A stretch of 64,000 bases of DNA from Acetofilamentum sp. (GCA_020721805.1 DYMB01000006.1:24688-88687), one strand, 5' to 3'; positions 6,650 to 42,090 are shown, numbered from the stretch's first letter. Notes: generated by a model not told the origin, from the sequence alone. Program-made: numbers and translations.

Positions 6650-6658
6650 AAAAACTCC

Positions 6659-7297: not shown

Positions 7298-7309
7298 TAC
7301 TCCTCCTGA

Positions 7310-8602: not shown

Positions 8603-8614
8603 CTATCCTCCAGT

Positions 8615-10089: not shown

Positions 10090-10763
10090 TTCCCACCTCC
10101 CAAATATTTTCTTTCAATTCCAAGTATTATCTTAATTGAGGTAGCGATTATTCCAAGTTGAACTCCAATAAGTATTCCTCTCTGGGCAGCCATATTTGGA
10201 TATTTCAATATCCATTCGACCACATCGGGTAAACCTTTGTAAATGAACTCGCCAAGTGGAACCCTTCCTATGGTAACTATTCCAGCAGTGATCAAAAGCA
10301 ATGTCGCATCAAAACTTCTCGCTCTGAATGATCTGAAAGCAGCCGAAGCCATATAAAAGGCAAGTAGTGAGAATATAGTTGATTGCATCGGCATCTGCAT
10401 ATATAGATATGTATACATTAAAGGAGTTGTATCTGTAGGTTTAACATTGTGAAAAATTTTCATCCAGAGTGTTGTAGGCATAAAGGCACCACCAAAGATA
10501 CCAAGTAAGGCTGTTACAAAAAGTGAAACAAGGACTATTATCGAATACTGCCATCCTTCAACCTTTCTTTTTATTTTTGTGATATGAAGTTCAACGGTTG
10601 ATTGAACGGCTATAAGGTATGTAAAAGCGGAGACTATTATCAACCAATCAAGCATCATATTATAAAAACTTTTCGAAGCTGGATGGGGGATAAAAAATTG
10701 AAATATCAAAGCCACACCGAATATCGCCGAAACCAAAAGTGGTAGAGTTCTTCTTATAAACAT
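10086..10763 (-). CDS. Conserved polytopic membrane protein, module gene B copy 1
   Basis: Paralogue of 6659-7297 (FFIPH, GWQYSI, GRVPLGE, LGIERKYL). Confidence 0.8.
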   Translation of the reverse strand: MFIRRTLPLLVSAIFGVALIFQFFIPHPASKSFYNMMLDWLIIVSAFTYLIAVQSTVELHITKIKRKVEGWQYSIIVLVSLFVTALLGIFGGAFMPTTLWMKIFHNVKPTDTTPLMYTYLYMQMPMQSTIFSLLAFYMASAAFRSFRARSFDATLLLITAGIVTIGRVPLGEFIYKGLPDVVEWILKYPNMAAQRGILIGVQLGIIATSIKIILGIERKYLGGGK

Positions 10764-10771
10764 ATCAACTC

Positions 10772-11980: not shown

Positions 11981-11991
11981 TTTACTCCCTT

Positions 11992-13116: not shown

Positions 13117-13126
13117 AATTCCTCCA

Positions 13127-14920
13127 TTATTTTTCAGGATATACTTTCAGTTCCTTCATCCACTTTGATAATTTTTCAACTCTATCCTTATCGTTTTCAG
13201 GTAGTATGAAGGGTCTTCTTCCTCTGGTATCAACAATAACTCCAACAACACCACCTTCAAGTTCAGTTTCTATCTCCTTTCCTCGTCCGATCCCCATATC
13301 AAGTCCTTTTGCTGGTGTTATTACCGCCTTAACTTTTTGATTCAAACCAAGAGGAATTATATTCATTTCTCCAAAATTGAACCTGTATTCATTCCCATCA
13401 AATTTTATTCTAACAGCTTCCTGTCCCTCTTTTATATTCCCTATAGGTGCAACACATGAACCAAGTCTTATCAAACAATCTTTTTCAAAAACCTCTGTAG
13501 CAGCCTTTTCATGAACTGTTGACAGAACACCGAGTTGAGGCATCATAAATATTGAATCCACTGTAAGCATTGTTACACCTTCAGGTAAGAATGCATCTAT
13601 CATCATAATCGCTGATTGAACCCTTCTGGGTGCATGAGAAAGAACCCCACCTGAACCAACAACGAGATTTAAAGTTAACATATTTACAAGAGTTTCACCG
13701 GTGCTCGTTTGATCGAAAGCGTCTGAAATCGTCCTCTCCTTTTGAACACCTTTTAAACCGACAGCCATAGTCTTATGTTGTTCGAGAGCAAGTCTTAGAG
13801 CCTCTCTTGATATCGCCTGTTCTATCTGAAGCTCATCCACGGTTGAAGGTATGGTTGTTGGTCTTATCATTTTATTTCTAATTCTGTTTCTTAAATCTTT
13901 TTCATCCATATGAAATGGAACCCATCTCATTATATTTTTCAATCCGGCTTCCTTTACAACATTTGAAATGGAATAACTCATTCCTAAATTTGCTGAAACT
14001 GTTCTGTTGAAAGTATTTTGAAAATATGAGAACACATCGGTTGTAGCTCCTCCTATATCAACACCAAGAACTTCTATTTTGTCCCTCTTTCCTATCGTTT
14101 CTATCAAAAGTCCAACGGCACCGGGAGTGGGCATTATCGGAACATCAGTCATATCCATCAATTTTCTGTATCCTGGAGCCTGCGCCATAACATGTTCCAT
14201 AAAAAGATCGTGTATTTTATCTCTCGCAGGTTTCAAATTCTCTTTTTCAAGAGTTGGTCTTAAATTTTCAACAACATAAAGAGCGGTCTTTTTTTCAAGT
14301 CTTTCCGTTATCTCGTTGACGGCTTTATTATTTCCAGCATAGATGACTGGCAATTTGTATCCCACACCGAATCTTGGTTTTGGATCGGCAGCCTGTATTA
14401 TCTCTGCAAGTTGAACGACATGAGTTATTGTTCCACCATCGGTCCCGCCTGAAAGAAGTATCATATCGGGTCTTAAAGTCCTTATTCTTTTTATCCTTTC
14501 ATGGTCAAGTCTTTTATCATTTGTGGCTATAACATCCATAACAATTGAACCTGCACCCAAAGCCGCCCTTGCGGCTGATTCGGCTGACATTTTATCAACT
14601 ACACCGGCAACCATCATCTGTAAACCACCTCCAGCAGACGATGTTGATATGTAAAGATCCACTCCATCTCCTTCGGGGTTTATTCTTTTTATTATTTTAT
14701 CATTATCAAGAATCTTTATATTGGCAAGTTCTTCAACCTCTCTTATAGCGTTCAAAACACCTTTTGTCACATCCTCGTATGGAGCCTCAACGGTTGTAGG
14801 TGCTTCCCCTCTTACGATCAAACGATATTCATTTTCCCTTTTCTCTATAAGTATAGCCTTTGTTGTTGTGGAACCACAATCGGTTGCAAGAATCCTTGTA
14901 ATTTGATCCTTCCGTTTCAT
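13127..14920 (-). CDS. Glutamate mutase L (GlmL/MutL-type) ASKHA-family ATPase, long form
   Basis: ATDCGSTTTKA (phosphate 1), SSAGGGLQM, LSGGTDGG, IMPTPGAV, VDIGGATTDVFS (phosphate 2), RTVSANLGM, GSGGVL. Confidence 0.85.
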   Translation of the reverse strand: MKRKDQITRILATDCGSTTTKAILIEKRENEYRLIVRGEAPTTVEAPYEDVTKGVLNAIREVEELANIKILDNDKIIKRINPEGDGVDLYISTSSAGGGLQMMVAGVVDKMSAESAARAALGAGSIVMDVIATNDKRLDHERIKRIRTLRPDMILLSGGTDGGTITHVVQLAEIIQAADPKPRFGVGYKLPVIYAGNNKAVNEITERLEKKTALYVVENLRPTLEKENLKPARDKIHDLFMEHVMAQAPGYRKLMDMTDVPIMPTPGAVGLLIETIGKRDKIEVLGVDIGGATTDVFSYFQNTFNRTVSANLGMSYSISNVVKEAGLKNIMRWVPFHMDEKDLRNRIRNKMIRPTTIPSTVDELQIEQAISREALRLALEQHKTMAVGLKGVQKERTISDAFDQTSTGETLVNMLTLNLVVGSGGVLSHAPRRVQSAIMMIDAFLPEGVTMLTVDSIFMMPQLGVLSTVHEKAATEVFEKDCLIRLGSCVAPIGNIKEGQEAVRIKFDGNEYRFNFGEMNIIPLGLNQKVKAVITPAKGLDMGIGRGKEIETELEGGVVGVIVDTRGRRPFILPENDKDRVEKLSKWMKELKVYPEK

Positions 14921-27595: not shown

Positions 27596-28066
27596 TTATT
27601 TATTAAATATATCGTTCAAAATGTTCTCGATTTCGTTTTTAAACTGAGCATCAAAGGTTATATTCTCTTCTTCTTCCTTCATAAGTGATAAAATATTCTG
27701 ACATACTTTTTGGGACATAACCTGTATAACTCCAATGATCGCATTTTTTGTAAAGATGGAGATAAGAATTAAATCGTCAGTGATAGCATAATAAAAAAAA
27801 GAATATTTTTTACCTTCCTGAAAGAGAGTTAAAAAATAATCCTCTTTTAATAGTTTTGCTATACTTCTTGTAGCGTTGAATATTCCAGAACAGAGTGCTC
27901 CGATAGATTGGTTAAAATAATCATCATTTTTTTGACCATTTTGAAAAAGAATCTGTCCTGAGGTGTTTATGACCAAAACACTCGTTACTCTTGTCTCGAT
28001 TGTAAATGCCCTCAATAACCGTTCAACATTTTTAACGGTAATTTCATCAAGAACAAGTTTTTTCAT
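27596..28066 (-). CDS. Roadblock/LC7 domain protein, MglB-like
   Basis: VLVINTSGQIL...IGALCSGIFNATRSIAKLLKEDYFLTLFQEG resembles the MglB core; acidic C-terminal helix. Confidence 0.8.
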   Translation of the reverse strand: MKKLVLDEITVKNVERLLRAFTIETRVTSVLVINTSGQILFQNGQKNDDYFNQSIGALCSGIFNATRSIAKLLKEDYFLTLFQEGKKYSFFYYAITDDLILISIFTKNAIIGVIQVMSQKVCQNILSLMKEEEENITFDAQFKNEIENILNDIFNK

Positions 28067-28076
28067 ATAATTTAAA

Positions 28077-28421
28077 TTAAATTAATTCCTGTAATGATGT
28101 TGCAATATTTTTAATCTGGATTATAAGAGATCCTATGTTAACATTCTTTTCAGCAAGTGTAAAAAGAATAAACTTTTCTTTTGAAATGAATAAAATTTCT
28201 CCCTTATCGGTATATATGGTTGAAAATATTGGAAGAGGATCCGTGCTCTTTCCAAGACTCTTTTCCATCTCAATATTTATCTTTGCGACCATCGCACCCA
28301 GAAGTTCAGCCAGATCAGTTTCGTAGAACAACTTTTCAACTATCAGTCCATCCTTTGTTAAAACCGCGACACCTTTTACCCCTCCTATTTCCATCACTTT
28401 TTCGATCTTTTCTTTTATCAT
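28077..28421 (-). CDS. Roadblock/LC7 domain protein
   Basis: IGGVKGVAVLTKDGLIVE...ELLGAM...NVNIGSL, canonical Roadblock pattern. Confidence 0.85.
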   Translation of the reverse strand: MIKEKIEKVMEIGGVKGVAVLTKDGLIVEKLFYETDLAELLGAMVAKINIEMEKSLGKSTDPLPIFSTIYTDKGEILFISKEKFILFTLAEKNVNIGSLIIQIKNIATSLQELI

Positions 28422-29149
28422 TGTTCAAGCACCTGTTTTATATTTTTTAAAAGTTGTTTTGCCTTTATCAGTATCAATCCAATTTTTACAATCTCTTCTG
28501 TAAATATTCCAAGTATGTATCCATTACCTTTAAAAAGATATATTCTCACCTTGCCAATTTCTATAAATATTCTATCTATGGGTCCAAGATCTGTTTTCCC
28601 TATAGAATCTTCACAGACCAGAAAAATTGTAGAGAATAAGGCTGAGGTTATTTCAGGATCAAGATTCTCAATCATCTTCGATTTGACAACAAGTCCAGAT
28701 TCTTCAATTATGATACTTCCCAAAACACCGTTTACTTTATTGATCTCACCAAGTGATCTATCGAGTAAACTTTCAGTTTCATTTGCTGTTATAATATTTT
28801 CTTTTTCGATTTTTTCCATCACCTCAAGATTTACAGATGAAATGGTTTCTTCCTTTTTTTCTGGTTTATTTTCTTCCAATTTCTTCACAGGCTCAACGAA
28901 AGACTTTATCTGTTGATCATCTGGATATTCATTTAATAGTTCGTTCAGAACATTCAAAGCTGTTGGATCGTTTAACCCCTTTAAAGATTTGTAAAGAAGA
29001 ATTTTTGCATCCTTTATATCTGGAAATTCAGAAAGAATCATTTTGCAGTATGTTATCGCTTCATTGTATGCTTTATTCTTGTAAAGATCCTCAGCGATCA
29101 TTATAAAAACGGAAAGACTCTCCCTATCAACTTTCATCCCCTCATTCAA
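28418..29149 (-). CDS. TPR + Roadblock/LC7 fusion protein
   Basis: N-terminal TPR pair; C-terminal VNGVLGSIIIEESGLVV...VKIGLI Roadblock domain. Confidence 0.82.
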   Translation of the reverse strand: MNEGMKVDRESLSVFIMIAEDLYKNKAYNEAITYCKMILSEFPDIKDAKILLYKSLKGLNDPTALNVLNELLNEYPDDQQIKSFVEPVKKLEENKPEKKEETISSVNLEVMEKIEKENIITANETESLLDRSLGEINKVNGVLGSIIIEESGLVVKSKMIENLDPEITSALFSTIFLVCEDSIGKTDLGPIDRIFIEIGKVRIYLFKGNGYILGIFTEEIVKIGLILIKAKQLLKNIKQVLEQ

Positions 29150-30251
29150 ATTTACCTCCTAAAAATTCTTCAAAAAGTTTTTGACTTTCCTTCAAATGAT
29201 CTATGAGTTTTTCAATCTTACTCTGCTTTTCTGGAGTTTTAAGAAGATCGTAAAGAGATATCAACTCTTCTATACTCTTTTCTAACATTCCTCTTTTGAA
29301 ATAAGCAAAAGAGTTATACTTTTTTATAAAAGGATCATCCATCTGTTCTTTTTTTACAAGTGAAGCGTAATCGTTAACCTTTTCAAACTGGCCTGTAGCA
29401 AAAAAAGAGTATATTATCATTCTATAAGCATCGATATTTTTTGGATCAATTTTTAAATAGTTTTTTAGTTCTAAAATCGATTTGTCGTAAAGTCCATCAT
29501 CAAAATAATGCTTTGCAACATCAAAAGAATTTTTATCGGATTCAATATGCGATGTTTCAACAACAACGATTCCAAGGGTTATCATTCCATAAATCAATTT
29601 TGCGATTTCAAATTCATCCCCATACCTTTCAGCAATATCTTTAATACTGTTTTTTCCATTTATCATAGAAAAAATTTCCCATTCTTTGGGTTTCAAATCC
29701 AGAAGATCCATCTTATCAGGATTATCAGAGATTTTTGGCACCACAGATGAATTGGGAATCTTGGAAGATAATCTTGACCATTCGTCTATCCTTCTGGAAC
29801 CTTCCATTATCAGGGATTCAGTTTTTATTCTAAACTTTATTAAATTATCAAGTAATATACTGGTTTCCTCAAATTTGAAATAACCATCTTTCCATTCGAA
29901 AAGTTTAAAAATAGTATCTTCGATTCTTAACTGCAAGAATTTTCTTAACTCGTTTTCACTCATAATTTTCATCTTTACTACCTCTCTTGCAAACTCCAGA
30001 TCATCGTTAGGTATCCTGTTTAAGATTTTCTCTTCATAAAATTCCTTTGTTATTTTTCCCGCTTTGATCAAAAGCAAAGGTAGATTGATTCCCTCAACAT
30101 TAGCATAGACAACGTTTCCCTTTTCAAAAAAAACATTTGCTTTTTGATCATTAACAGATTTAATCCTCAGAATACCACTCTTCTGGTTGAAAGAGAGTAT
30201 TTGAAAGAGATCTATCAGGTTGAGTTCGCTTATCGGTCCTTCTATAGCCAA
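29142..30251 (-). CDS. DUF4388 domain protein with C-terminal TPRs
   Basis: MAIEGPISELNLIDLFQILSFNQKSGIL, LFEWKDGYFKF, LIMEGSRRIDEW. Confidence 0.85.
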   Translation of the reverse strand: MAIEGPISELNLIDLFQILSFNQKSGILRIKSVNDQKANVFFEKGNVVYANVEGINLPLLLIKAGKITKEFYEEKILNRIPNDDLEFAREVVKMKIMSENELRKFLQLRIEDTIFKLFEWKDGYFKFEETSILLDNLIKFRIKTESLIMEGSRRIDEWSRLSSKIPNSSVVPKISDNPDKMDLLDLKPKEWEIFSMINGKNSIKDIAERYGDEFEIAKLIYGMITLGIVVVETSHIESDKNSFDVAKHYFDDGLYDKSILELKNYLKIDPKNIDAYRMIIYSFFATGQFEKVNDYASLVKKEQMDDPFIKKYNSFAYFKRGMLEKSIEELISLYDLLKTPEKQSKIEKLIDHLKESQKLFEEFLGGKFE

Positions 30252-30259
30252 TTTGACTC

Positions 30260-32968
30260 CTATTCAAATATCGATATCCAATTTCTTGCTGCCTCTATCG
30301 CTTTCTGACTTTTGATAGCGAATTCAGAACCGGGAGCATTTTTTGTGACACTGTTCCATCTTTCAATCGCTTCCTTTATATAACCTTCTTTGGCTATAAG
30401 TTTAGCATAATTAAAATTCGCTTCAGCATTATTGTTATCGAGTTTTAGAATATTTTGATACGCATCCTTTGCCACTTCAAAATTATCGATTTCCTGACAT
30501 ATAGCCCCTATCTTTAAAAACGCTTTTATGTTTGCAGGATCTATCTGAACTATTCTTGTGTAAATTTGAATCGTTTTGTCAAAATCTTCATCAAGTTCAT
30601 ATAACATACCAAGTTCCCAGAGATAATCTAAGTTATTATAATCTTTGCTGACAAGAGATTCCAGTATCTTTATCGATTCATCATAAATTTTCATTTTTCT
30701 TAAAAGATTTGCCTTTTTAAACAGGATTTCAAAATTCTCAGGGAAGATCTTCAGTATACGGTCATAGATTTCAAGAACATCTTTATCCCTGTTCTGAGAA
30801 AAATATATTTCTGCAAGATTTGAAAGAGCATCAACATTTTCTGGTTCCTTTATAAGGATATCTCCAATTATTTTGATCGCATCATCAAGTTTATTGTTCT
30901 TCCATAAAAGCATGGCATAGAGGTTCATAATTTCAGTTGGAGAATTATCTTTTTGAATTATTTTGGATAAATATTCAAGAGGTTCATTGTAAACACCTTT
31001 ACCGTATAATAATTTTGAAAGTTTGAAGACCGCACTTCTATTTAAAGGTGAAATGTTAACGATCTTTTTATAATACTCTTCAGCCTCACCATAAATATTT
31101 TTAATATTGTAAACATCCGCGATCAATTCAAGCATTTCAATATCATTTTCATCTTTTCTCACCACTTCCAGTGCTAACTGTAAAGCTGCGTCGTATTCAC
31201 TTTTATCAAAAGATTCCTTCGCTTTTTTTCTCTTATCATCAATTACATCTATCTCTTTTAATTTATCATCCTCTTTTTCAAAAGTATCCTCAGTTTCCTC
31301 TTCAAAAACAGCTGTAAAAATATCTGCACTTTTTTGTTCATCCATCAAAAATCCTTCAAGCTGCTCAGAAGATGTTACCTGATAATCCTTGGACAATGTT
31401 CCACTTATAAGGACATCAACCTTATCGGCATAGTAATCGAGTCCAAGTTTATATCTCGTTTCAACATAATATGGATTCAACTTTAAAGCCTCTTTGGTAT
31501 ACTTTAAAGCCTCTTCGTACTTTCCAATTTTAGATAATGTAAATGCAAGATTATAATATGCTTCAGCAAATTTTTCATCATATTGAATCGCTTTTTCGAA
31601 AACTTTTATGGCATCCTCATATTTACCATTTTCTCTATAAATTATTCCGAGATAGTTATAGGTGAGAGGATAATCTCCCTTTACCTCCAGAACCCTATCT
31701 ATAAATTTTTTTGCCTGTTCAAAATTTTTTCTCTCGATGTTTAAAATCGAAAGGTTGATAAGAGCATCAACATAGTCATCTCTGATCTCGAGAGATTTTA
31801 AAAACAACTTTTCACCTTCATCATTCTTGTTGAGATGCACCATCGCTATACCGATATTGTTGTATGCCATAACATACATCGGATCAATTTTGATGGACTG
31901 ATTGTAACATTCAACAGCCTTACTCAATTCTCCTTTTCTGTGAAAGGCTATACCCATATCGTTATAAGCCTTTGCGGCAAACGATTCATCTTTTAACGCG
32001 AGTTTGTATTCATCTATCGCTTTATCATTTTCTCCAAGAAGAAGATATATCTCTCCAATCTGTATATGAATTATGGATCTTTCAGGTTCAACTGATTCGG
32101 CTTTTCTGAATTCCTTTAAAGCTTCGTTGAATAATCCTTTATTTCTGAAACCTATACCCAGAGTAAAATAGGTCAAAAAACTGTTTGGCTGGAACGAAAC
32201 ATTAGACTCCTCGTTGAGAAAAGATTGATACGCTCCCTGTTGGTAAAATTCTATCCCGAGATTAGCCTGCGTTTTTCCATATGCTGGATTGAGTTTTATA
32301 GCCTTTTTCGTCTCTTTTATCGCATCATCGAAAAGCCCTTTTTCACCATAAACAAAACCTAAAAGAAAATGCGCTTCGGCAAGGTTTACATCAAGTTCAA
32401 GTGCCTTCTGGAACTCTTTTATCGCTGAATCAAGTATTCCCTTATTGTAATAAACTTCTCCAAGCATTGAATGTATCTGAGCAGATTCGGGTTGAAACTT
32501 TAAAGATTTTCTGTATTCCTCTATAGAATCATCATACATCCCTAAAGATTTATATATTTTGGCAAGATTCAATCTTGCATCGATAAAGGATGGATTCCCC
32601 TTTAAAATCTTTTTGTATTCAGCGATAGCATCAAGTGATTTACCCATATTGTTCAAAGCTTCCGCTAATTTGAATCTTGTATTCAAATCTTCTTGATCGT
32701 TTTCTAAAATATTTCTATATTCATATATTTTTTTGTCATACATTCCGGTTTCACGGTATATAAGTTCAAGGTTGTTTTTTGCAAGAGTAAATCTTGGATC
32801 TATTGATAAAGCCTTTTCTAACTCTTCTATGGCTTCATCGTAGAGTCCTTTATTGTAGTAAACAACGGCAAGATTGTTATGTGCTCCAGCATCTTTAGGA
32901 TCTATTCTCTGTGCCAGTGATTTTAAAACCTTTTTCTCCGCTTCAGAAATCTGGATCTGTTTTTTCAT
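30260..32968 (-). CDS. Large cytoplasmic TPR-repeat protein
   Basis: 902 aa of TPR repeats in two blocks separated by an acidic linker; no signal peptide. Confidence 0.88.
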   Translation of the reverse strand: MKKQIQISEAEKKVLKSLAQRIDPKDAGAHNNLAVVYYNKGLYDEAIEELEKALSIDPRFTLAKNNLELIYRETGMYDKKIYEYRNILENDQEDLNTRFKLAEALNNMGKSLDAIAEYKKILKGNPSFIDARLNLAKIYKSLGMYDDSIEEYRKSLKFQPESAQIHSMLGEVYYNKGILDSAIKEFQKALELDVNLAEAHFLLGFVYGEKGLFDDAIKETKKAIKLNPAYGKTQANLGIEFYQQGAYQSFLNEESNVSFQPNSFLTYFTLGIGFRNKGLFNEALKEFRKAESVEPERSIIHIQIGEIYLLLGENDKAIDEYKLALKDESFAAKAYNDMGIAFHRKGELSKAVECYNQSIKIDPMYVMAYNNIGIAMVHLNKNDEGEKLFLKSLEIRDDYVDALINLSILNIERKNFEQAKKFIDRVLEVKGDYPLTYNYLGIIYRENGKYEDAIKVFEKAIQYDEKFAEAYYNLAFTLSKIGKYEEALKYTKEALKLNPYYVETRYKLGLDYYADKVDVLISGTLSKDYQVTSSEQLEGFLMDEQKSADIFTAVFEEETEDTFEKEDDKLKEIDVIDDKRKKAKESFDKSEYDAALQLALEVVRKDENDIEMLELIADVYNIKNIYGEAEEYYKKIVNISPLNRSAVFKLSKLLYGKGVYNEPLEYLSKIIQKDNSPTEIMNLYAMLLWKNNKLDDAIKIIGDILIKEPENVDALSNLAEIYFSQNRDKDVLEIYDRILKIFPENFEILFKKANLLRKMKIYDESIKILESLVSKDYNNLDYLWELGMLYELDEDFDKTIQIYTRIVQIDPANIKAFLKIGAICQEIDNFEVAKDAYQNILKLDNNNAEANFNYAKLIAKEGYIKEAIERWNSVTKNAPGSEFAIKSQKAIEAARNWISIFE

Positions 32969-32973
32969 TTATC

Positions 32974-33591
32974 CTACCTGTTTAAAAAATCAAGAAGTTT
33001 TTTTAAAGATATCGGATCGGGTAAAAGTATAAGGTATCCTTTTAAAGGTTGTGGTTCATCTTCAAAGGTAAACTCTGTTTCAACACAGAAAACTATATCT
33101 TTGTTTGCGCTAAAATCTATATAGGCAGAAGTTACAACAGCGGAACCTATATCTATGACAAGGTTTGGAACAGAAGGTAGAATAAGCATGTTGAGAAAAT
33201 CACTCATCGCTGTAAGGTATGAACCTACAACTATATTGGCAACCTCCTTTATTGCGGATTGCTCTATTTCACTCAATACCGTAGTGGTTCCAACAGGTTT
33301 CCCCATAACCATATCGACAAGAAGCATGGATTCATCTCTTGGAAAAAGAAGTAATGTCCTTCCAGTAAGATCTCCAAGAAATTTCACAAGTACACCGGTT
33401 ACGATTTCATCCTGATTGTCGATTATTCTATAAATTTCCTCAGAGGAAATTAAATGAACTTTTGGAACAGATACCATAACTCTTTTGTTAACCAACTGGG
33501 AGAGAACTGTCGCTGCATGACCACCACCAATGTTTGATATTTCTTTGATACCATCGAGGTGAAAATCTTTCAGGTTCTTATAATCTATCAT
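32974..33591 (-). CDS. cheC: CheY-P phosphatase CheC
   Basis: Two ExxN motifs (KEISNIGGGHAATVLS; KEVANIVVGSYL), PSVP. Confidence 0.92.
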   Translation of the reverse strand: MIDYKNLKDFHLDGIKEISNIGGGHAATVLSQLVNKRVMVSVPKVHLISSEEIYRIIDNQDEIVTGVLVKFLGDLTGRTLLLFPRDESMLLVDMVMGKPVGTTTVLSEIEQSAIKEVANIVVGSYLTAMSDFLNMLILPSVPNLVIDIGSAVVTSAYIDFSANKDIVFCVETEFTFEDEPQPLKGYLILLPDPISLKKLLDFLNR

Positions 33592-33594
33592 AAA

Positions 33595-35457
33595 TTACCC
33601 CACTTTTGAAATCGTTACGATCCCTGGAACATCCACAATAAAAGAAGGCATCCCATTATTTAAAATTGTTACACCTGCCAGCCCAGGTATTCCAGCAAGC
33701 ATTCCCTTTAAAGGTTTTACAACGACTTCCGATTGTTCAACAAAATTTTCTACCAGTATTCCATACAGGGATTCATCAACTTCAACCAGAACTATTTGAA
33801 AATTCTCTTTTTCTCTATTATATTCGCTTTTGAAAATATCCGCAAGTCGTATCAATGGGACTATACCTTCTCTGAGAATAAATACTTCTTTCCCCATTAT
33901 TGTATAAATTTCATCCATATTTATTCTAATGGTTTCAACTATATGTGTCAAAGGTATTATGTATACCTCCGAGCCTACATTTACAAGCAAAGCTTTTATT
34001 ATCGCGAGTGTTAAAGGAACTTTTAAAATAAATGTGGTTCCTCTACCCGTCTGCGAAGAGATCTCAAGTGTCCCACCTATATGTTTTAAAACATTATAGA
34101 CCGCATCAACACCAACACCCCTTCCTGATATATCTGTGACCTCCTCCTTGGTTGAAAATCCACTATTTAAGATAAGGGAGAATACCTCATGATCACTCAT
34201 CCTTGTAGATTCATCCTCGGAAATCAAATTTAAAGATATCGCTTTTGAAATGATCTTGTTTTTGTCCAATCCCTTTCCATCATCTGAAACAATAATTAAA
34301 ACTCCATTCTTTACCCTTTTCGTCTCAAGCAAGATATAACCTTCTGGAGATTTTTTATTTTTTATTCTTTCATCGGGTGTTTCAATACCGTGATCCACAG
34401 CATTTTTTAAAAGATGAAGTAATGGATCCGCAAGAGCGTTCAGTATGGCTCTATCAAGTTCTATATCACTTCCTTTTATTTCAAATTTTATTTTTTTGTT
34501 TAATCTGTTTGAAAGATCCCTCATAAATCTTGGATATCTATCAAAAACCTGTCCTACAGGGACCATTCTGATTTTCATTATTTCATCCTGTATAGCTGAA
34601 ATTGTTTTTGATGCCGAATTCAGAGAATTTATCAAATCTTCATTTTGAATAGAATAAGCTATCTGCTGTAATCTTCCTCTTTCTATAACAAGTTCTGCTA
34701 TATAATTTTGAAGGTTATCGAGTCTTTCAAGTGATACCTTAATATCCTTTTTTTCAATAACCACATCGTTATCACTCTTTGCCTCATCTTTAACAACAAC
34801 ATCTTTTATTTCTGGAATACTTTTTATATCATCTATTAAAGGTGCAATTTCTTTTACATTTTTGATGTTTATATTAATCTCGTTACCGAATTTTTCTTTC
34901 ATTATAGAATCGAAATCAGGTTCGGTATTTATAAAAATATTTTTATCCTGTAGACTTTTTATAACCACATAGGCTCTTGCCGATTTTAAAACCACATCAT
35001 CAGCAAAGATTACTTTTAAAGTTATATTTTTTTCATTCTCTTTTTTTTCTTCAACTTTTTCGGTTTCTATTATTTTTTTAGATGTTTCAACACCCGTTTT
35101 GATCGATTCTATAACCTTTAAAAAACTTTTTATTATGTTCTCATCGATTTCCCTTTTATTGACAAGAGAGGTTAGGTAATCGGTCCCCTTCAACAAAAGA
35201 TCTATCAAATCAACCGTTATGTTGAGTTTTGAATTCCTTATAAGATCCATAATATCTTCCATGGCATGGGAAATCTTTGTTATTGAAGAATAGCCCATAG
35301 AAGCAGCCATACCTTTAAGTGTATGCATACCTCTAAAAATTGAATTGATAGCTTCAGTATCGTTCATATCCTTCTCAAGTTTGAGAATTGAATTGGATAT
35401 CTGCTCTAAATAATCTTCCGCTTCACTTATGAACAATTCTTCATAATTTGAATTCAT
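33595..35457 (-). CDS. cheA: Chemotaxis histidine kinase CheA
   Basis: P1 FRGMHTLKGMAA, HLLKNAVDHGIE, DDGKG, GFSTKEEVTDISGRGVG, C-terminal CheW-like P5. Confidence 0.96.
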   Translation of the reverse strand: MNSNYEELFISEAEDYLEQISNSILKLEKDMNDTEAINSIFRGMHTLKGMAASMGYSSITKISHAMEDIMDLIRNSKLNITVDLIDLLLKGTDYLTSLVNKREIDENIIKSFLKVIESIKTGVETSKKIIETEKVEEKKENEKNITLKVIFADDVVLKSARAYVVIKSLQDKNIFINTEPDFDSIMKEKFGNEININIKNVKEIAPLIDDIKSIPEIKDVVVKDEAKSDNDVVIEKKDIKVSLERLDNLQNYIAELVIERGRLQQIAYSIQNEDLINSLNSASKTISAIQDEIMKIRMVPVGQVFDRYPRFMRDLSNRLNKKIKFEIKGSDIELDRAILNALADPLLHLLKNAVDHGIETPDERIKNKKSPEGYILLETKRVKNGVLIIVSDDGKGLDKNKIISKAISLNLISEDESTRMSDHEVFSLILNSGFSTKEEVTDISGRGVGVDAVYNVLKHIGGTLEISSQTGRGTTFILKVPLTLAIIKALLVNVGSEVYIIPLTHIVETIRINMDEIYTIMGKEVFILREGIVPLIRLADIFKSEYNREKENFQIVLVEVDESLYGILVENFVEQSEVVVKPLKGMLAGIPGLAGVTILNNGMPSFIVDVPGIVTISKVG

Positions 35458-35843: not shown

Positions 35844-36248
35844 CTAATTTTTATTTAGAATATTTTTAACATCAATAATTATTATCTCTCTTCCATCCTT
35901 TTGAATAAAACCCTTTATATAACCTTCTTCGATTTCCTCCATGTTGACAGATTCAACATTTATAATACCTTCTATCGAGTCTACAAGAAATCCATATTTT
36001 TCTTTGTTGTTCTCACATATGATTATATAATTTTCTTCAACTTTTTTGTTGATCCTTAATTTTTCTTTCAAAGAAACCAGAACAACAACCTCTCCTCTTA
36101 AATTTATAACTCCATAAAGAAAATTCTCTGCATTTGGAATTCTCACCGCTGGTAGTTTTTCATAGATATCGATAATATCTGAAATATGTATACCATAAAA
36201 CTTCTCTTCAATTTTAAAAGTGATAAACTGTTTATTTTCGTTTTTCAT
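35844..36248 (-). CDS. cheW: Chemotaxis coupling protein CheW
   Basis: RIPNAENFLYGVINLRGEVV, GFLVDSI; start moved to ATG 36248 (MKNENKQFITF). Confidence 0.92.
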   Translation of the reverse strand: MKNENKQFITFKIEEKFYGIHISDIIDIYEKLPAVRIPNAENFLYGVINLRGEVVVLVSLKEKLRINKKVEENYIIICENNKEKYGFLVDSIEGIINVESVNMEEIEEGYIKGFIQKDGREIIIIDVKNILNKN

Positions 36249-39200
36249 CCAATTCCTTCCAGCAATATTCAATGGGCAATTTATCCAAGGGATGGAGATA
36301 AAATCCATGAACTTTATTTAAAATTGCGGATTGTTTGTAATTATGTGTCAGGAAAACCCAGGGGGCATCATCCACTATCATTTCCTCTATTTTTTGATAG
36401 ATACCGTTTCTCTCTTCATAGTTTGTGGTCATCCTTGCTTTTTCGATCAAAGAATCTATTGTTTTATTTGAATAGAAAGAATTGTTTCCACCATCTCCAA
36501 AACTATAAGTATGAAATAGAGGATAGAGGAAATTATCAGGTTCTCCAGTATCACCTGCCCAGCCCATCATAAAAATATCACATTTGCCAGAATGCATTCT
36601 TTCAAGAAGTTCCAACCATTTGAGAGGAATTATTTTAATTCTTATACCTATTTCCTTCCACATCGCTAAAAGTAATTCAGCCCTTTTTATAACAGTTTCG
36701 CTATCAGAGCAGATCATTTCAAATTGATTTTTTATACCATCAGGATAACCCGATTTTATCATAAGTTCTCTTGCTTTTGCAGGATTGTAAGGATAACCTT
36801 CAAGCAATTTATTATAACAGGGTAAAGATGGTGGAAAGATGCCTTTCGCTATTATTCCAAGTCCATACATAGTTTCATTTATATACCTTGTTTTATCCGT
36901 TGCATAGTTAATCGCCTTTCTGACATCTTTTATAAATGCCAGTTCATTTCTTCTTGACAGGTTGAATCCAACATATTGAACATCGAGTGAAGAAATGGTT
37001 AAAATATTTATATCTATCCTGTTCGATTTTTTTAAAACTTCCAGGTCCTTTACATTGATCGAAGAGTAATCTATATCCCCTGATAAAAGATTTTTAAATT
37101 CCTCCTCTTCTTTTTTTAATTTTATTATGATACTCTCAACAAAAGGTTCACCCTCAAAATAATCTTTGTTGGATTCCATCTCTATCCTATCTTCCCAGAT
37201 ACCTTTTAAAACGAATGCACCACAACCGATACAATTAGATTTCATTTTTTCATCAGAAAATTTCACCATATCCTTTTTTAATATTGATAAAGGGAGAACG
37301 GCAAGGTTTGAAAGAAACGGAATATATGGATATTCAAGAATGAATTTTATAGTATGATCATCGATGATTTTTATCCCTTCAACATCCCTTACTCTTCTTT
37401 TCATATAATCTGTGGAACCTTTGATCATATTAACGAAAGAGGCGTTTGGAGTTAACAGAACATTTTTGATAGTTTCCGAAACATCTTCTGATGTAACAGG
37501 TGTGCCATCATGAAAATATGCGTTCTCTCTCAAAAAGAATATCCATTCGGTTGCATCAGAATTTATCTGCCAGGATTTTGCCAGAGCTGGTATAACACTA
37601 GTATCCTTTCCAAATTTAACAAGACCACAATGTATATGTTGTAATATAGTATTACTCGTGGAATCCCCGACAAGAGCGGGATGCCAGTGAACCGGGAAAT
37701 TGTTCATAATGAATCTGAAAACATTTCTTTCGGTATTCCGTTTTGGAAGATATTTTTGTGAAAAAGTATCCATAATGCCGGAAACCATTTTTTCAGTATC
37801 CTCATTTTTCAACAGATCGTCTTTAAACATCTTGTTCAACTCTTCAGCTTTGATCGTTATCTGTTGGAATTTTTTTATTATATCGGTATAAATTTTTACT
37901 ATCTCATCTTTTAATTTTTCCTGATTTGAAAGTGAGTTATAAATTTCTTTTAAAAGGGTTTTGTAATTTTCAGTGGATTTCTTTGTTTCGACAACAACAG
38001 AGTTACTCATCTCGATGGAAGAGATTATATCGTTTGATGATGATAATTCCCTTTCAGCTACTTTTACAACATTTTTTAAAAGTTCGTCCATATTCTTTAC
38101 AATGTCGTTGATTTCAGAAGATGCCTCAGTTGTCCTTTTTATAAGATCTTTTGTTTGTAAAACTATCACTGAAAGATTGTTTTGAAATTTTGCATCCCTT
38201 GCAGCCTCAATAGCAGCATAAAGGGATAGAAGTTTTGTTTGTTCGGAAAGATCTTTTAATTCGGAACTCGTTTTTATTATTTCCTTAAGATTATCGGAAA
38301 TCTGAGTAAAAACAATTTTCAGGTTATTTATATATTCAAGAGTTTTTTCTATTTCATTTTTCATGTTGGTTATACTTGTTGAAAATTCGTTTACCGAACC
38401 TATCAGAAGGTTTAAATTATCTTCAATTTCACCAACATTTTTCATCATCAACTGTTCACTCTCTTCTATAGATTCGACTGCACCAAAATAATTTTTTATC
38501 ACCTCTTCCTGTTGTAAATTACTTTGAATAAAATCATCTATTACACTCATCATGGAATCAACGATGTTTTTACTGTTTTCTAAAAAATATTTTATCTTTT
38601 TAAATATTTTGATTTCTGTGAAAATAGCATGGTCTAAATCTTTTTTCTCATATATAAAATTCGAAAGGGGTTCAAGTTGGTCCATCAGATGGGAAAGAAA
38701 GATTTTAACATCGGATTGGGTTTTTAATATCGATAAAAGTTTTTCAGTATTCTGCAGGGAATGATCAATAATATACTGAATTTTTTTATTAAGATCACTG
38801 ATCGAGGCTTTATTCTTGTTCTGTATGTTGCTATACTCTTTCATCCTATCCGATTTATTAACGATATCAACAAGATTCATCTCAACATTCTTTAATCTAA
38901 AATTCAAAAGATCAACATTTTTTGTTAAACTGTCTATTTTAAAATTTATTTCATCTATCATCTCAACAACTTTTTCATTTTTCTGTTGAACACCCTTTAT
39001 GTTTTCAGGTATCATCTTTGTAAGTTTAAAAGTCTTGTTTGCCAGAAGAAGCATTCTATCAGCAATAACCTCAAATCCCTTACCATTTTCACCAGCATGG
39101 TATGCTTTGATTCCAGCATTTCTGGCGGCAGATTCTGTCATCTGGGCTATGTCGATAATTATCCCTGTTATCTGATCTATATGTTTTGAATATTCGTTTA

Positions 39201-39585
39201 AAGGCTTTACATTTTGAAGAATTTCATTCGACCCTGTAGCGAACATATTCAATTTTTCAATTATCCTATCAAACTCTTTAACACTCTTTTGAATATTTTC
39301 TGATGATTTTTTTGAATAATCTATTAAAACATCCGCGGCTTCCGAAACTATCTGGATGGAAGCGTAGAGTTGGTTACCTTTATTATCAATCTTTTGAATC
39401 TGACCGACAACATCTTTTTCATCTCTTGAAATTTCAGAAAGAACTCCTGTTGCATTATTATTTATTTCAAGAAGTTCCTCTTCTTCAATTTTGACTGTCT
39501 TTAAAGCATATATGAATGCCGTAGGATCAAATTCTTCTTCTTTCTTCGAATGGTTTTTCTTTAAAAAACTCAAAATTGATACCAT
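36232..39585 (-). CDS. Soluble chemoreceptor: two MCP signalling domains fused to a C-terminal family-5 (DppA/OppA-like) solute-binding domain
   Basis: Hairpin tips AQMTESAARNAGIKAYHAGENGKGFEVIADRM and SEQTKLLSLYAAIEAARD; SBP5 motifs PALAKSWQI..DATEWIFFLRENAYFHDGTPVTSEDV, VRKAINYATD, YPYNPAKARELM; no TM or signal peptide. Confidence 0.85.
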   Translation of the reverse strand: MVSILSFLKKNHSKKEEEFDPTAFIYALKTVKIEEEELLEINNNATGVLSEISRDEKDVVGQIQKIDNKGNQLYASIQIVSEAADVLIDYSKKSSENIQKSVKEFDRIIEKLNMFATGSNEILQNVKPLNEYSKHIDQITGIIIDIAQMTESAARNAGIKAYHAGENGKGFEVIADRMLLLANKTFKLTKMIPENIKGVQQKNEKVVEMIDEINFKIDSLTKNVDLLNFRLKNVEMNLVDIVNKSDRMKEYSNIQNKNKASISDLNKKIQYIIDHSLQNTEKLLSILKTQSDVKIFLSHLMDQLEPLSNFIYEKKDLDHAIFTEIKIFKKIKYFLENSKNIVDSMMSVIDDFIQSNLQQEEVIKNYFGAVESIEESEQLMMKNVGEIEDNLNLLIGSVNEFSTSITNMKNEIEKTLEYINNLKIVFTQISDNLKEIIKTSSELKDLSEQTKLLSLYAAIEAARDAKFQNNLSVIVLQTKDLIKRTTEASSEINDIVKNMDELLKNVVKVAERELSSSNDIISSIEMSNSVVVETKKSTENYKTLLKEIYNSLSNQEKLKDEIVKIYTDIIKKFQQITIKAEELNKMFKDDLLKNEDTEKMVSGIMDTFSQKYLPKRNTERNVFRFIMNNFPVHWHPALVGDSTSNTILQHIHCGLVKFGKDTSVIPALAKSWQINSDATEWIFFLRENAYFHDGTPVTSEDVSETIKNVLLTPNASFVNMIKGSTDYMKRRVRDVEGIKIIDDHTIKFILEYPYIPFLSNLAVLPLSILKKDMVKFSDEKMKSNCIGCGAFVLKGIWEDRIEMESNKDYFEGEPFVESIIIKLKKEEEEFKNLLSGDIDYSSINVKDLEVLKKSNRIDINILTISSLDVQYVGFNLSRRNELAFIKDVRKAINYATDKTRYINETMYGLGIIAKGIFPPSLPCYNKLLEGYPYNPAKARELMIKSGYPDGIKNQFEMICSDSETVIKRAELLLAMWKEIGIRIKIIPLKWLELLERMHSGKCDIFMMGWAGDTGEPDNFLYPLFHTYSFGDGGNNSFYSNKTIDSLIEKARMTTNYEERNGIYQKIEEMIVDDAPWVFLTHNYKQSAILNKVHGFYLHPLDKLPIEYCWKELDEKRK

Positions 39586-39661
39586 TTTTATCCCTTTAAA
39601 TAAAAAAAATATAACATATTATTAAAAATAAATCAATACAAAATAAAGATTGGGAATATCA

Positions 39662-40252
39662 TTATTCTATTTTTTGTCTTCTCTCTATAGAACATTGAAG
39701 GGTAAAATCATCTATATACTCAAAATCGGTTCCAAAAGGAATTCCACGTGCAACGGTAGAGATTTTTTGGACCTTATCTTTAAAAAGTTTTAAAATATAC
39801 ATAGAAGTCGTTTCACCTTCAGTTGAAGGTGGTAGAGCAAGAATTATTTCACCTATATGATTTTTTTCAACCCTTTCCAAAAGTTTATTAAAATTTAACT
39901 TTTCAGGGGTAATTCCATCAAGTGGAGAGATAACCCCTCCAAGAACATGATACAAACCTTTATATTTTTTTGTTTTCTCGAAAATGAAAACATCCCTTGC
40001 TTTTTCAACTATCATCAAAACATTTTTATCCCTCGTCTCATCATTACAAATTTTACATGGATCATTTTCATCTATAAAACCACAGATGGAGCACACTTTT
40101 GTATTTTCTACCAGATCGACTATAGAATCCGATAGTTCTCTGGAAAAAACTTTACCCTTCATTATCAAAAAAAATATTAACCTTTCAGAGGATTTATCAC
40201 CTATTCCCGGTAATTCTTTTAAATTTTTCTTTAACCTTTCAAAAAGCTCCAT
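39662..40252 (-). CDS. recR: Recombination protein RecR
   Basis: LPGIGDKSSER, C4 zinc finger CSIC...CKIC, YHVLGGVISPLDG, EGETT. Confidence 0.97.
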   Translation of the reverse strand: MELFERLKKNLKELPGIGDKSSERLIFFLIMKGKVFSRELSDSIVDLVENTKVCSICGFIDENDPCKICNDETRDKNVLMIVEKARDVFIFEKTKKYKGLYHVLGGVISPLDGITPEKLNFNKLLERVEKNHIGEIILALPPSTEGETTSMYILKLFKDKVQKISTVARGIPFGTDFEYIDDFTLQCSIERRQKIE

Positions 40253-40564
40253 TTAAAACCCCATCATATTTCGCATCTGTAAACCACCTGTAATTTTTTG
40301 CATCTCATCTTTATTGAGAGTATCAACCTTATTTTTTGCCTCGTTGAACGCTGATTTCAATAGATCTGAGATCAAAGAAGGCTCCTCTTTTAAAATATCC
40401 TCAGATATTTTTATTTCATCAACTTCATACTTTCCATTCATTTTTATGAAAACCATCCCACCTCCAACACTTACTTCAACGAATATTTTTTTGAGCCTAT
40501 CATCCATATCTTCCATCATCTTTTGCATCTGCTGTGCCTGTTTTAAAAGTTTTTTCATATCCAT
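40253..40564 (-). CDS. ybaB: YbaB/EbfC nucleoid-associated protein
   Basis: KQAQQMQ, GGGMV; located between dnaX and recR. Confidence 0.93.
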   Translation of the reverse strand: MDMKKLLKQAQQMQKMMEDMDDRLKKIFVEVSVGGGMVFIKMNGKYEVDEIKISEDILKEEPSLISDLLKSAFNEAKNKVDTLNKDEMQKITGGLQMRNMMGF

Positions 40565-40575
40565 TAAAATCCTCC

Positions 40576-42090
40576 TTAATTTACTATCTCTCCATCGAAT
40601 CTTTCCATAATGGATTTAAATTTTTTATTCTGTTTTATGGAATCTCTATTTAAAGAAACGGTTTGGTTCTTTTCTCTCTGATAGTTTATTTTAATGTTCA
40701 ACTTTTCATTAAAATGTTTCAGCATAGATTTTAAACTGCTATCGTTTAAGATATTTTCATCCTTTGATAAAACAGCAATTTCAACAAAATCATCTTTTAT
40801 TTGAATCACCCTCGCGTTTTCGATTGTTTCTCCCAATACAGGATCCTGAATTTTACAAAAATCGATAAACTTTTCATAAATCACGGATAAATCCTCATCA
40901 GGGATCATATCGGTTTCTTTTGTCTCAACTTTTAATTCTGGAGTTTCACTTTTAATATTTTTTTTTGAATTCAACAACTTTAAGATTTCATCGATATCCC
41001 TTCCATCTATCATAAATGGAATCCTCATCAACTGATTTTCAACAACAATTTTTCTATTTGAGGCAAATTTTAGTTTGTTGGAAAGTTCTATCAATTCTCT
41101 TACTATTTGGTTTAAAACTGTGTTTGAAAAATTTTTGGATTGATTTTTAGCCTTATCAATTATATCGATATGTAAGGATTCTATCTCATCGGTCTTGATA
41201 TCATTTTTTAAAAGAACGAGAATATGGAAATATAAAGCGAGTTCGAATACAAAAGTCTCTATATCAAAGCCCTTCATAAGTAAATCTTCAAAACTTTCCA
41301 TAATACCCTTTATATCCTTCTCTATAATCTTCTGAACAAATTTAACAAAAAAATAGGTATCTATTCTTCCAAAAGTTTGATTGATTTCATCGTATGTTAT
41401 TTTTTTATGCATAAGAGCTATCTGATCAAGCATTGAGAGAGCATCTCTCATCCCACCGTCTGCCATCTGGGCTATCAACTTAAGACCTTCAATCTCATAT
41501 TCTATTTTCTGATCTTTACATATGATTTCAAGTTGTTTGACTATTTCGGTTATTGATAATCTTTTAAAATCAAACCTCTGACATCTTGAAAGAATGGTGG
41601 GAAGAACATTGAAAGGTTCGGTAGTACAAAAAATAAATTTTACATGTTCGGGTGGTTCCTCGAGTATTTTCAAAAGTGCGTTGAATGCTTCCTTGGTAAG
41701 CATATGGACTTCATCTATTATGAATACTTTATTTTTTCCAGAAATCGCCACATAACCTGCTCTATCCCTTAAGTCCCTGATCTCATCGATACCTCTGTTG
41801 GATGCACCATCTATCTCTACAACATCCACATCCCTTCCATCCATGATATCTCTACAGGATCTACAGGTAAGACAGGGTTCTCCGTCTTCAACATTTTCAC
41901 AATTAAGTGCCATCGCAAGAATCCTTGCTGTTGAAGTTTTACCAACACCCCTTGGGCCCGAAAAAAGTAACGCGTGGGGAATCCTGTTTCTTTTTACAGC
42001 ATTTTTCAATACCTTAATAATGTGATCCTGACCGATAACATCATCAAATCTCTGTGGTCTGTATTTTCTTGCAAAGACTATATAAGACAT
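40576..42090 (-). CDS. dnaX: DNA polymerase III subunit gamma/tau
   Basis: ARKYRPQ, GPRGVGKT, IDEVHML, SRC. Confidence 0.97.
   Translation of the reverse strand: MSYIVFARKYRPQRFDDVIGQDHIIKVLKNAVKRNRIPHALLFSGPRGVGKTSTARILAMALNCENVEDGEPCLTCRSCRDIMDGRDVDVVEIDGASNRGIDEIRDLRDRAGYVAISGKNKVFIIDEVHMLTKEAFNALLKILEEPPEHVKFIFCTTEPFNVLPTILSRCQRFDFKRLSITEIVKQLEIICKDQKIEYEIEGLKLIAQMADGGMRDALSMLDQIALMHKKITYDEINQTFGRIDTYFFVKFVQKIIEKDIKGIMESFEDLLMKGFDIETFVFELALYFHILVLLKNDIKTDEIESLHIDIIDKAKNQSKNFSNTVLNQIVRELIELSNKLKFASNRKIVVENQLMRIPFMIDGRDIDEILKLLNSKKNIKSETPELKVETKETDMIPDEDLSVIYEKFIDFCKIQDPVLGETIENARVIQIKDDFVEIAVLSKDENILNDSSLKSMLKHFNEKLNIKINYQREKNQTVSLNRDSIKQNKKFKSIMERFDGEIVN

Follow-up and report, generated by a model that had tools for sequence, protein, structure and literature searches.

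The window, a stretch of 64,000 nucleotides from Acetofilamentum sp. (GCA_020721805.1, DYMB01000006.1:24688-88687), carries on its minus strand the gene of a soluble chemoreceptor that joins two methyl-accepting chemotaxis protein (MCP) signalling hairpins to a C-terminal family-5 substrate-binding protein (SBP5) domain. Such a receptor, with two hairpins and a family-5 SBP in one chain, is a real and conserved feature: the same architecture recurs in full-length relatives from other assemblies, usually at the head of a che operon. In the window's own genome it occurs together with missing flagellar genes, and the receptor itself lacks the methylation motif. We propose that the two hairpins of one chain fold into a single four-helix bundle and that the SBP5 domain controls CheA from the cytoplasm. 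An earlier note, made from the sequence of this DNA alone, had described the gene as a chemoreceptor fusion; its claims are taken up below where the results bear on them.

Domain architecture of the receptor

The open reading frame starts with an ATG, 7 nt downstream of a ribosome-binding-like site (AAAGGGA). Searched as a whole against Pfam, the receptor matched MCPsignal (96 bits, in two stretches) and SBP_bac_5 (261 bits, aa 664-1028). The protein was also searched in separate pieces. Residues 1-330 scored 70.1 bits and residues 331-620 scored 42.8 bits against MCPsignal (PF00015), for which the Pfam cut-off is 34.6 bits, and residues 616-1117 scored 263.1 bits against SBP_bac_5. Both signalling domains thus exceed the cut-off independently, and the objection that only one of them might be supported is not upheld.

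A monomer model was built with AlphaFold2 on an alignment of 24 sequences (mean predicted local distance difference test score, pLDDT, 84.8; predicted template modelling score 0.67). Its four long helices, which turn at residues 164 and 464, are followed by a full SBP fold. The helices span residues 35-163 and 165-312 and, after a break at 313-316, residues 317-463 and 465-611; the alpha/beta domain covers residues 622-1110. No membrane segment was found in the receptor. The Kyte-Doolittle mean over 19 residues peaks at 1.28, within the SBP5 core, and the N-terminus is charged. The earlier note had described a protein without transmembrane segment, with about 600 residues of coiled coil containing two hairpin tips and with a complete DppA/OppA-like domain behind them. 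All three statements agree with the models and domain searches, and the Pfam scan that it had proposed returned two MCPsignal domains and one SBP_bac_5 domain.

Conservation and distribution of the fusion

A search of the protein collection gave an identical protein and, in addition, 23 full-length relatives of 1046-1128 aa (24-71% identity, 91-100% coverage). Both Pfam domains are precomputed in 22 of these relatives and SBP_bac_5 only in the remaining one. The junction near position 37740 is in frame in all 23, which stem from other assemblies; the homologue search suggested in the earlier note therefore confirmed the fusion. The identical layout was present in 31 public loci (L019-L049) of the species-level genome collection. 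The records of these loci are labelled as metagenome-assembled genomes of candidate division WOR-3, TA06, Stahlbacteria, Edwardsbacteria and UBP2.

The window's own phylum (WOR-3 according to record titles) was surveyed in 272 genomes with residues 1-620 as the query (E <= 1e-12). Matches were obtained in 83 genomes. In 77 of the 272, an open frame of 1047-1139 aa was matched across both hairpins, and in two more (G027, G236) the receptor frame is interrupted by contig ends. The other rows among the 83 are ordinary single-hairpin MCPs or fragments. A close homologue of residues 1-620 without the SBP5 domain was not found in these searches. The sole shorter relative is a 276-aa fragment on a 2.2-kb contig; beyond it, the shorter relatives are ordinary MCPs with E values of 1e-13 or weaker.

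In a representative library of 1.84 billion proteins, three proteins matched residues 1-620 at E <= 1e-30. The best 150 representatives include 14 proteins of 1048-1137 aa whose match extends over both hairpins. Pfam was run on 10 of these 150, which gave three family members (two MCPsignal domains and SBP_bac_5), six sensor-less proteins with double MCPsignal and one protein with MCPsignal and CZB. The proteins P0289, P0275, P0277, P0288, P0255 and P0336 (635-905 aa) each show two strong stretches of MCPsignal, match no further Pfam domain and are DosM-like by architecture. A different layout is seen in P0029 (1206 aa; HAMP, MCPsignal and SBP_bac_5), which is presumably membrane-bound and likewise joins a family-5 SBP to a chemoreceptor.

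The two hairpins and their tips

Comparison of hairpin 1 with hairpin 2 by BLASTP gave nothing significant (E 0.68). When family profiles were compared with hhalign, the hairpins aligned with 98.4% probability (E 4.5e-15) over 246 ungapped columns at an offset of exactly 300. This alignment indicates that the two hairpins are an old internal duplication and that the halves have been held at equal length. The linker between them contains a proline and differs in length by up to about 24 residues across the family. In the Protein Data Bank (PDB), the best sequence matches of hairpin 1 were the Thermotoga soluble MCP Tm14 (3G67/3G6B, 4e-10) and Tm1143 (2CH7).

The tip arms are the best-conserved parts of the coiled coil, with a mean column conservation of 0.54-0.68 versus 0.39-0.46 distally. 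Canonical MCP tips contain a glycine-rich turn (EAARAGExGRGFAVVA). Tip 1 retains this hairpin turn (AGExGxGF), and N156, G168 and G170 of tip 1 do not vary among the 24 sequences. Tip 2 has a near-canonical N-arm (LSLYAxIEAAR), and its glycine hairpin and canonical C-arm are lost. The tips were also compared with those of the genome's own two transmembrane MCPs. Helix A is identical at 11 of 28 positions, helix B at 12 of 29, helix C at 11-14 of 28 and helix D at 3-4 of 29. The outlier is thus helix D, the arm that leads into the SBP5 domain.

Methylation sites of MCPs follow the consensus [ASTG][ASTG]xx[EQ][EQ]xx[ASTG]. Residues 1-620 of the receptor contain no match to it, versus six in each of the two transmembrane MCPs, and no EE or EQ pair is conserved in more than 7 of the 24 receptor relatives.

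Among known receptors, the soluble class IV MCPs such as Thermotoga maritima Tm14 (PDB 3G67) likewise have no membrane segment, but they have one hairpin per chain, form homodimers and carry no SBP. Receptors with MCPsignal and CZB, for example P0308, share the position of the sensor C-terminal to the signalling domain and differ in having one hairpin and no SBP.

Predicted packing of the hairpins

Residues 30-312 and 317-612 were submitted to complex prediction as separate, unlinked chains, each with its family alignment. The two hairpins gave a score of 0.63 (0.63, 0.64 and 0.63 in the individual runs), while the best of three controls, which were unrelated proteins and not other hairpins, reached 0.00. 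In the calibration set, a score of 0.63 was reached by 58 of 80 solved complexes and by 2 of 110 mismatched pairs. The runs agreed in at least 96% of the contacts, and the pLDDT of the partners was at least 81. The residue numbers of the lowest-error contacts (59-569, 52-576, 80-548, 132-495, 122-509 and 199-429), and likewise those of the contact 66-562, each sum to about 628. In this predicted packing, helix A runs antiparallel on helix D, helix B packs on helix C, and turn 164 stands beside turn 464. The predicted ends of helices B and C meet at the covalent linker 313-316, although the predictor had been given no linker. Judged from these models, the topology is most likely that of a normal receptor dimer made from one chain.

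The strongest alternative is a rod as known from DosM (Vibrio cholerae VC1403, class F9), which the earlier note had named as a parallel. Two chains would form an extended homodimer with tip 1 and tip 2 at opposite ends; the rod would bridge the two CheA/CheW baseplates of a cytoplasmic sandwich array, with a pair of SBP5 domains in the middle. Tandem signalling domains in a soluble chain are the hallmark of DosM, for which cryo-electron tomography revealed a rod spanning two baseplates (PMC7534058, PMC9321776). The receptor is likewise soluble, both of its tips are strongly conserved, and equal arm lengths suit a symmetric sandwich as well as a bundle. Chemoreceptors with two signalling domains are represented in the literature that we found by DosM/F9 only.

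The surroundings of the receptor differ from those of DosM in several respects. The partner of DosM/F9 is a CheW with three domains, sensor domains are almost missing in this class (98% of DosM homologues are sensor-less), and 97% of the hosts are flagellated and have other Che classes (PMC9321776). Here, the receptor has an SBP5 sensor and the genome has no flagellum and a sole CheA. Both CheW proteins of the genome are single-domain (134 or 154 aa in the operon, depending on the start, and 243 aa), and a triple CheW is absent. DosM fills every other trimer of its array and requires further soluble receptors (PMC7534058), whereas the genome has three MCPs of which the other two possess transmembrane segments. 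Sensor-less double-MCPsignal proteins score only 67-75 bits against the receptor, like ordinary MCPs; the six among the best 150 representatives, a comparison that did not include the V. cholerae DosM sequence, score 65.1-73.6 bits, within the range of single-hairpin MCPs. The structural predictions also favour the side-by-side arrangement. Instead of a continuous helix, the hairpins are joined by the variable, proline-containing loop, and the unlinked hairpins are predicted to pack side by side, tip to tip and in register, unlike the two-ended rod of DosM.

DosM is the nearest named system, yet four of its defining features are missing here. Of the analogy drawn earlier, the two signalling domains stand, and a triple CheW, a second soluble receptor, a flagellum and a sequence kinship closer than that to ordinary MCPs do not. 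The genome content indirectly supports the bundle over the rod. The arms of the receptor measure 129-148 residues, versus 152 and 156 residues from the tip to the C-terminus in the two transmembrane MCPs, and because of this similarity the bundle could sit in the array of the transmembrane receptors. Taken together, we consider a DosM-like rod rather unlikely, with the single-chain bundle at roughly twice its odds.

A further weak MCPsignal match in the genome, the fifth (20.1 bits), lies in a 261-aa open reading frame with an N-terminal hydrophobic stretch. It is below the cut-off and was not counted as a receptor. The third receptor of the genome (582 aa; contig C13, L017:3557-5305, plus strand) begins with about 230 residues that hold several hydrophobic segments and match no Pfam sensor; this region is possibly a membrane-embedded sensor.

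The substrate-binding domain and its ligand

Foldseek matched the SBP5 domain over the full length to GbpA (3m8u), DppA (1dpp), MppA, OppA and NikZ, with target-normalised TM-scores of 0.82-0.87. A phmmer search of the PDB with the C-terminal part returned GbpA (3m8u, 6.4e-61) and DppA (1dpp, 5.5e-57). The domain shares the complete fold with DppA, GbpA (HbpA), MppA and OppA at 24-27% identity. The model is nearer to the liganded than to the open forms of these proteins (0.82 for 1dpp versus 0.71 for 1dpe; 0.85 for 3o9p versus 0.70 for 4toz). In contrast to the DppA/GbpA-type SBPs, which are periplasmic, the domain has no signal peptide or hydrophobic segment, is not accompanied by a permease gene and is fused behind 620 cytoplasmic residues. 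The genome's only four BPD_transp_1 matches are on contigs C5 and C69, none being on the window's contig C3, in agreement with the earlier observation that no ABC permease is nearby.

DppA Arg355, which we take to be the carboxylate clamp, and GbpA Arg33 are not conserved in the receptor family. Therefore, glutathione or a canonical dipeptide is unlikely as the ligand. The other clamp is kept. Asp1012 lies in an invariant W-x-G-D motif, aligns with DppA Asp408 and is present in 24 of 24 family sequences. DppA Asp408 is described as strictly conserved and forms a salt bridge to the charged terminus (amino group) of the ligand, and Asp432 and Arg33 are the equivalent clamps of GbpA for glutathione (PMC3295651). 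On sequence grounds, we suppose that the ligand carries a free amino group and would be neither a standard dipeptide nor glutathione. The earlier idea that a repurposed SBP senses a cytoplasmic ligand agrees with the complete fold and the conserved aspartate, and it has to be narrowed by the missing arginines. We regard such a cytoplasmic sensor as the best reading of the domain.

A recent copy of the genome's own exported SBP5 protein was considered as the origin of the domain and rejected, as the identity is 25% and W-x-G-D is missing there. This protein, the only other SBP5 protein of the genome (contig C5; L100:8302-10404, minus strand), has 700 aa and is an unusual fusion of SBP_bac_5 (254 bits) with a C-terminal TonB_C domain (66.7 bits). 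Two BPD_transp_1 genes are found about 4 kb from it on the same strand; the elongation factor G and M20 peptidase genes between them are on the opposite strand.

Family-5 SBPs are known to feed chemoreceptors and to act inside the cell. SgrR is a cytoplasmic transcription factor with a C-terminal SBP5-like domain, a case of the same fold used as an intracellular regulatory domain, though its output is DNA binding. The SgrR model of NCBIfam matches residues 645-728 of the receptor (9.7e-7). A literature search on SgrR and solute binding found no paper on this precedent. In peptide taxis of E. coli, the family-5 SBP DppA feeds the chemoreceptor Tap (PMC8050422), but it is a separate periplasmic protein that contacts a transmembrane receptor, whereas the SBP studied here is covalently fused and cytoplasmic. 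In the excerpts available, the literature on family-5 SBPs with chemoreceptors likewise has the SBP acting as a separate protein and describes no fused receptor.

The SBP5 domain could alternatively serve for protein docking, as a scaffold or partner-binding domain, so that the receptor would be mainly structural or constitutive and nucleate the array for the two transmembrane receptors. The lack of methylation sites, the partly degenerate tip 2 and the only partly kept ligand-contact residues of DppA and GbpA would fit such a role, as would the position of the receptor as the first operon gene in most genomes, expected of a core component; DosM itself has been called a scaffold (PMC9321776). 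It is hard to explain without ligand binding, however, that the three-lobed fold and the W-x-G-D pocket motif are invariant down to 24% identity, and SBP5 members bind ligands in all solved cases listed. We judge a docking role to be improbable. Finally, the idea that an MCP gene and an SBP gene were joined by faulty assembly or by the recent loss of a stop codon has next to no chance and is excluded because the fusion is conserved across relatives, with an uninterrupted frame in 23 independent proteins, 31 public loci and 77 of 272 genomes and with a 276-aa contig fragment as the only close homologue of residues 1-620 lacking SBP5; no support for it was found, NCBI merely naming the relatives 'ABC transporter substrate-binding protein'. 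This database name conceals their receptor nature. In IMG, the relatives are called 'ABC-type transport system substrate-binding protein/methyl-accepting chemotaxis protein'.

Che operon, motility genes and probable output

The receptor stop codon (TAA, 36232-36234) overlaps cheW, as had been noticed earlier. The overlap is 17 nt if cheW starts at the ATG at 36248, which is preceded by GGAAGGA, or 77 nt with the ATG of the longest open reading frame at 36308. CheA is single in the genome (one H-kinase_dim match). In 19 of the 31 public loci, cheW is directly downstream of the receptor, and 17 of those 19 also have cheY, cheA and cheC/X. The other 12 loci have no downstream che gene (in three, the flank is shorter than 1.3 kb), which points to a second, che-unlinked receptor subfamily. 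The che-unlinked loci are L025-L027, L030, L036 and L040-L047, and both kinds occur in DAIRCK01 (L031, L041) and JAOZNQ01 (L039, L047). Within the phylum, 64 of the 79 receptor genomes have a CheA match no more than 8 kb downstream of the receptor, on its strand. CheA is found in 103 of the 272 phylum genomes, and about three quarters of the Che-bearing genomes carry the receptor. In phylum family f6, receptor and CheA are on separate contigs in 6 of 6 genomes.

The genome of the window has a size of 1.70 Mb and is 99.8% complete; flagellin and FlhA were not found in it. Across the phylum, FlhA was above the cut-off in 6 of 272 genomes, none with the receptor. Type IV pilus genes are present (three PilB-like, two PilT-like and PilC), and so are two CheR, one CheB and one CheD. 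A second chemosensory cluster on contig C18 contains mglA and cheR, cheD and cheB (Table 1), and its MglA matches that of Myxococcus xanthus at 3.4e-67. The CheW-domain protein of this cluster has 243 aa, a Lys/Glu-rich N-terminus and one CheW domain. On contig C65 (L018:3526-6291), an mglB-like Roadblock gene (165 aa) and a second mglA (195 aa) are convergent with the gene of a chemoreceptor with two transmembrane segments (560 aa). Upstream of the latter, on the same strand, are genes for phosphotransferase system components IIA/IIB and HPr kinase.

The DUF4388 domain encoded in the operon is what we take to be the PATAN domain. Since flagellar genes are absent and PATAN and Roadblock genes are part of the che operon, a pilus-based output is likely, namely an effect on the polarity or the activity of type IV pili. 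The Roadblock/LC7 superfamily includes MglB, and PATAN genes are known to lie beside mglA and mglB (PMC4316618). The PATAN domain of Synechocystis binds PilB1 and PilC (bioRxiv 2021.06.11.447907). PatA-type PATAN regulators of Synechocystis contain a receiver domain, while the PATAN proteins here carry TPR repeats instead. A comparable arrangement is the Frz system of M. xanthus, a Che-type pathway linked to the MglA/MglB switch and type IV pili (PMC4316618). Its receptor FrzCD differs in having one hairpin and no SBP, and mglA of Myxococcus is not beside che genes (PMC4316618), whereas it is clustered with them here.

Proposed mechanism

The architecture of the receptor, its conservation, its operon and the absence of flagellar genes and of a methylation motif are observed; from them we infer how the bundle is arranged, that a ligand is bound, that the kinase is controlled and that pili are the output. 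The two homologous hairpins (aa 35-611) would pack as a single bundle of four helices, the two tips lying together at one end and the linker, the N-terminus and the SBP5 domain at the other. This bundle would be the single-chain counterpart of a receptor homodimer, and its length would roughly equal that of the cytoplasmic part of the transmembrane receptors. The tips would dock to the CheW and CheA encoded directly downstream. The SBP5 domain, attached to helix D, may bind a small cytoplasmic molecule that has a free amino group and could be a peptide-like compound from import or metabolism, and the clamp-like closure of the domain would shift helix D and change the activity of CheA. As the organism has no flagellum, phosphorylated CheY would act on type IV pili, via the PATAN-TPR, Roadblock/MglB-like and MglA proteins. 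We assign this model as a whole, a one-chain cytoplasmic receptor with SBP5-driven control of CheA and a pilus output, a probability of about one half.

Several observations weigh against the model. The complex prediction resembles solved MCP homodimers, and its pass may reflect this likeness only; the prediction, which covered the hetero-hairpin pair, does not discriminate against the rod. The C-arm of tip 2 is so far from canonical (3-4 of 29 positions) that binding of CheW or CheA by tip 2 is uncertain. Adaptation is unexplained, as the receptor has no methylation consensus although cheR, cheB and cheD are present. In the SBP5 domain, 12 of the 24 sequences have Asp at the position of DppA Arg355, 4 have Lys and 4 have Gly; the position of GbpA Arg33 holds Asn, Gly or Asp, and NCBIfam scores are far under every equivalog cut-off (for example, 199 versus 1005 bits for DppA, NF043070). 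CheA is located elsewhere in 14 of the 79 receptor genomes of the phylum, and one genome (79% complete) has no CheA match. As MglA is present in 166 of 272 phylum genomes, many of which have no CheA, the link between MglA and Che is one of gene neighbourhood.

A more far-reaching version of the model can be put forward tentatively, the odds being somewhat against it. The receptor would be a natural single-chain 'dimer' with asymmetric halves, in which three tip arms are MCP-like and the sensor-linked arm is remodelled, and with one SBP5 clamp. Free of methylation, it would provide the main input to a Che pathway that works without flagella and directs the polarity of type IV pili via PATAN and MglA/MglB proteins throughout the phylum. 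It might report imported peptide-like nutrients inside the cell, a transport- or metabolism-dependent taxis.

Neither a fusion of an MCP with a family-5 SBP nor a receptor bundle made of a single chain was found described in a literature search that did not cover the tables of DosM homologues (S5 and S6 of PMC9321776). If the model is true, the halves of a natural single-chain receptor are separately mutable and could show how asymmetry of the bundle controls CheA. To our knowledge, all well-studied chemoreceptors are symmetric homodimers, though they signal asymmetrically. A cytoplasmic family-5 domain as receptor input would newly couple nutrient uptake or metabolism to behaviour. In this candidate phylum without flagella, most genomes with Che genes have the receptor at the front of their che operon, and it therefore also offers a route to the role of chemosensing there.

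Genomic features and upstream region

The coordinates of all features are collected in Table 1.

Table 1. Features of the receptor gene, its operon and the second chemosensory cluster. Positions are those of the window unless a contig is given.
Feature	Position	Strand	Evidence
Whole gene, 1117-aa soluble double-hairpin chemoreceptor with C-terminal SBP5 domain	36232..39585	-	Open reading frame/translation; Pfam; 23 full-length relatives
Hairpin 1, aa 35-312 (helix A 35-163, turn 164, helix B 165-312)	38650..39483	-	AlphaFold2; MCPsignal 70.1 bits
Tip 1, aa 155-175, RNAGIKAYHAGExGxGFEV[IV]A	39061..39123	-	Alignment blocks
Inter-hairpin linker, aa 303-316, helix break with Pro306	38638..38679	-	AlphaFold2 breaks at 303 and 313-316; alignment indels
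Hairpin 2, aa 317-611 (helix C 317-463, turn 464, helix D 465-611)	37753..38637	-	AlphaFold2; MCPsignal 42.8 bits
Tip 2, aa 453-475, LSLYAxIEAARxGK.Q..L.VIV	38161..38229	-	Alignment
SBP5 domain, aa 622-1110, DppA/GbpA-like, complete	36256..37722	-	Pfam 263 bits; PDB phmmer; Foldseek
Asp1012 codon, W-x-G-D motif, aligned to DppA Asp408	36550..36552	-	HMMER alignment to 1dpp
Intergenic leader, 76 nt, after recR	39586..39661	-	AAAGGGA site; one promoter-like site
cheW, single CheW domain, overlaps receptor stop	35844..36248	-	Pfam CheW 96 bits; sequence
cheY, 122 aa	35464..35832	-	Response_reg 108 bits
cheA (Hpt, P2, dimerisation, HATPase and CheW-like domains)	33595..35457	-	Pfam
cheC/cheX-type phosphatase	32974..33591	-	CheC and CheX Pfam matches
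902-aa TPR protein, conserved in operon	30260..32968	-	Pfam; synteny
DUF4388 protein	29142..30251	-	PF14332, 96.9 bits
Three Roadblock/LC7 proteins: 28418-29149 (N-terminal TPR), 28077-28421, 27596-28066	27596..29149	-	Pfam Robl_LC7; PDB 7f8m, 8.5e-5
Second chemosensory cluster: pilT-like, mglA, 552-aa AAA ATPase, PATAN-TPR, cheR, cheD, cheB, TPR, cheW-domain protein	contig C18:55000-72000 (L016), open reading frames 4584-13401	+	

A promoter-like site (TTGATT-17-TATATT) is situated in the receptor leader at 39636-39608 on the minus strand. Promoter-like sites in this AT-rich region were not clearly above chance (74 found versus 60.1 +/- 6.2 in shuffles), and a terminator scan of the AT-rich DNA around the receptor was likewise not above chance. 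The che operon is directly downstream of dnaX-ybaB-recR (39662-42090, minus strand), and the same upstream genes are present in the closest public locus, L019.

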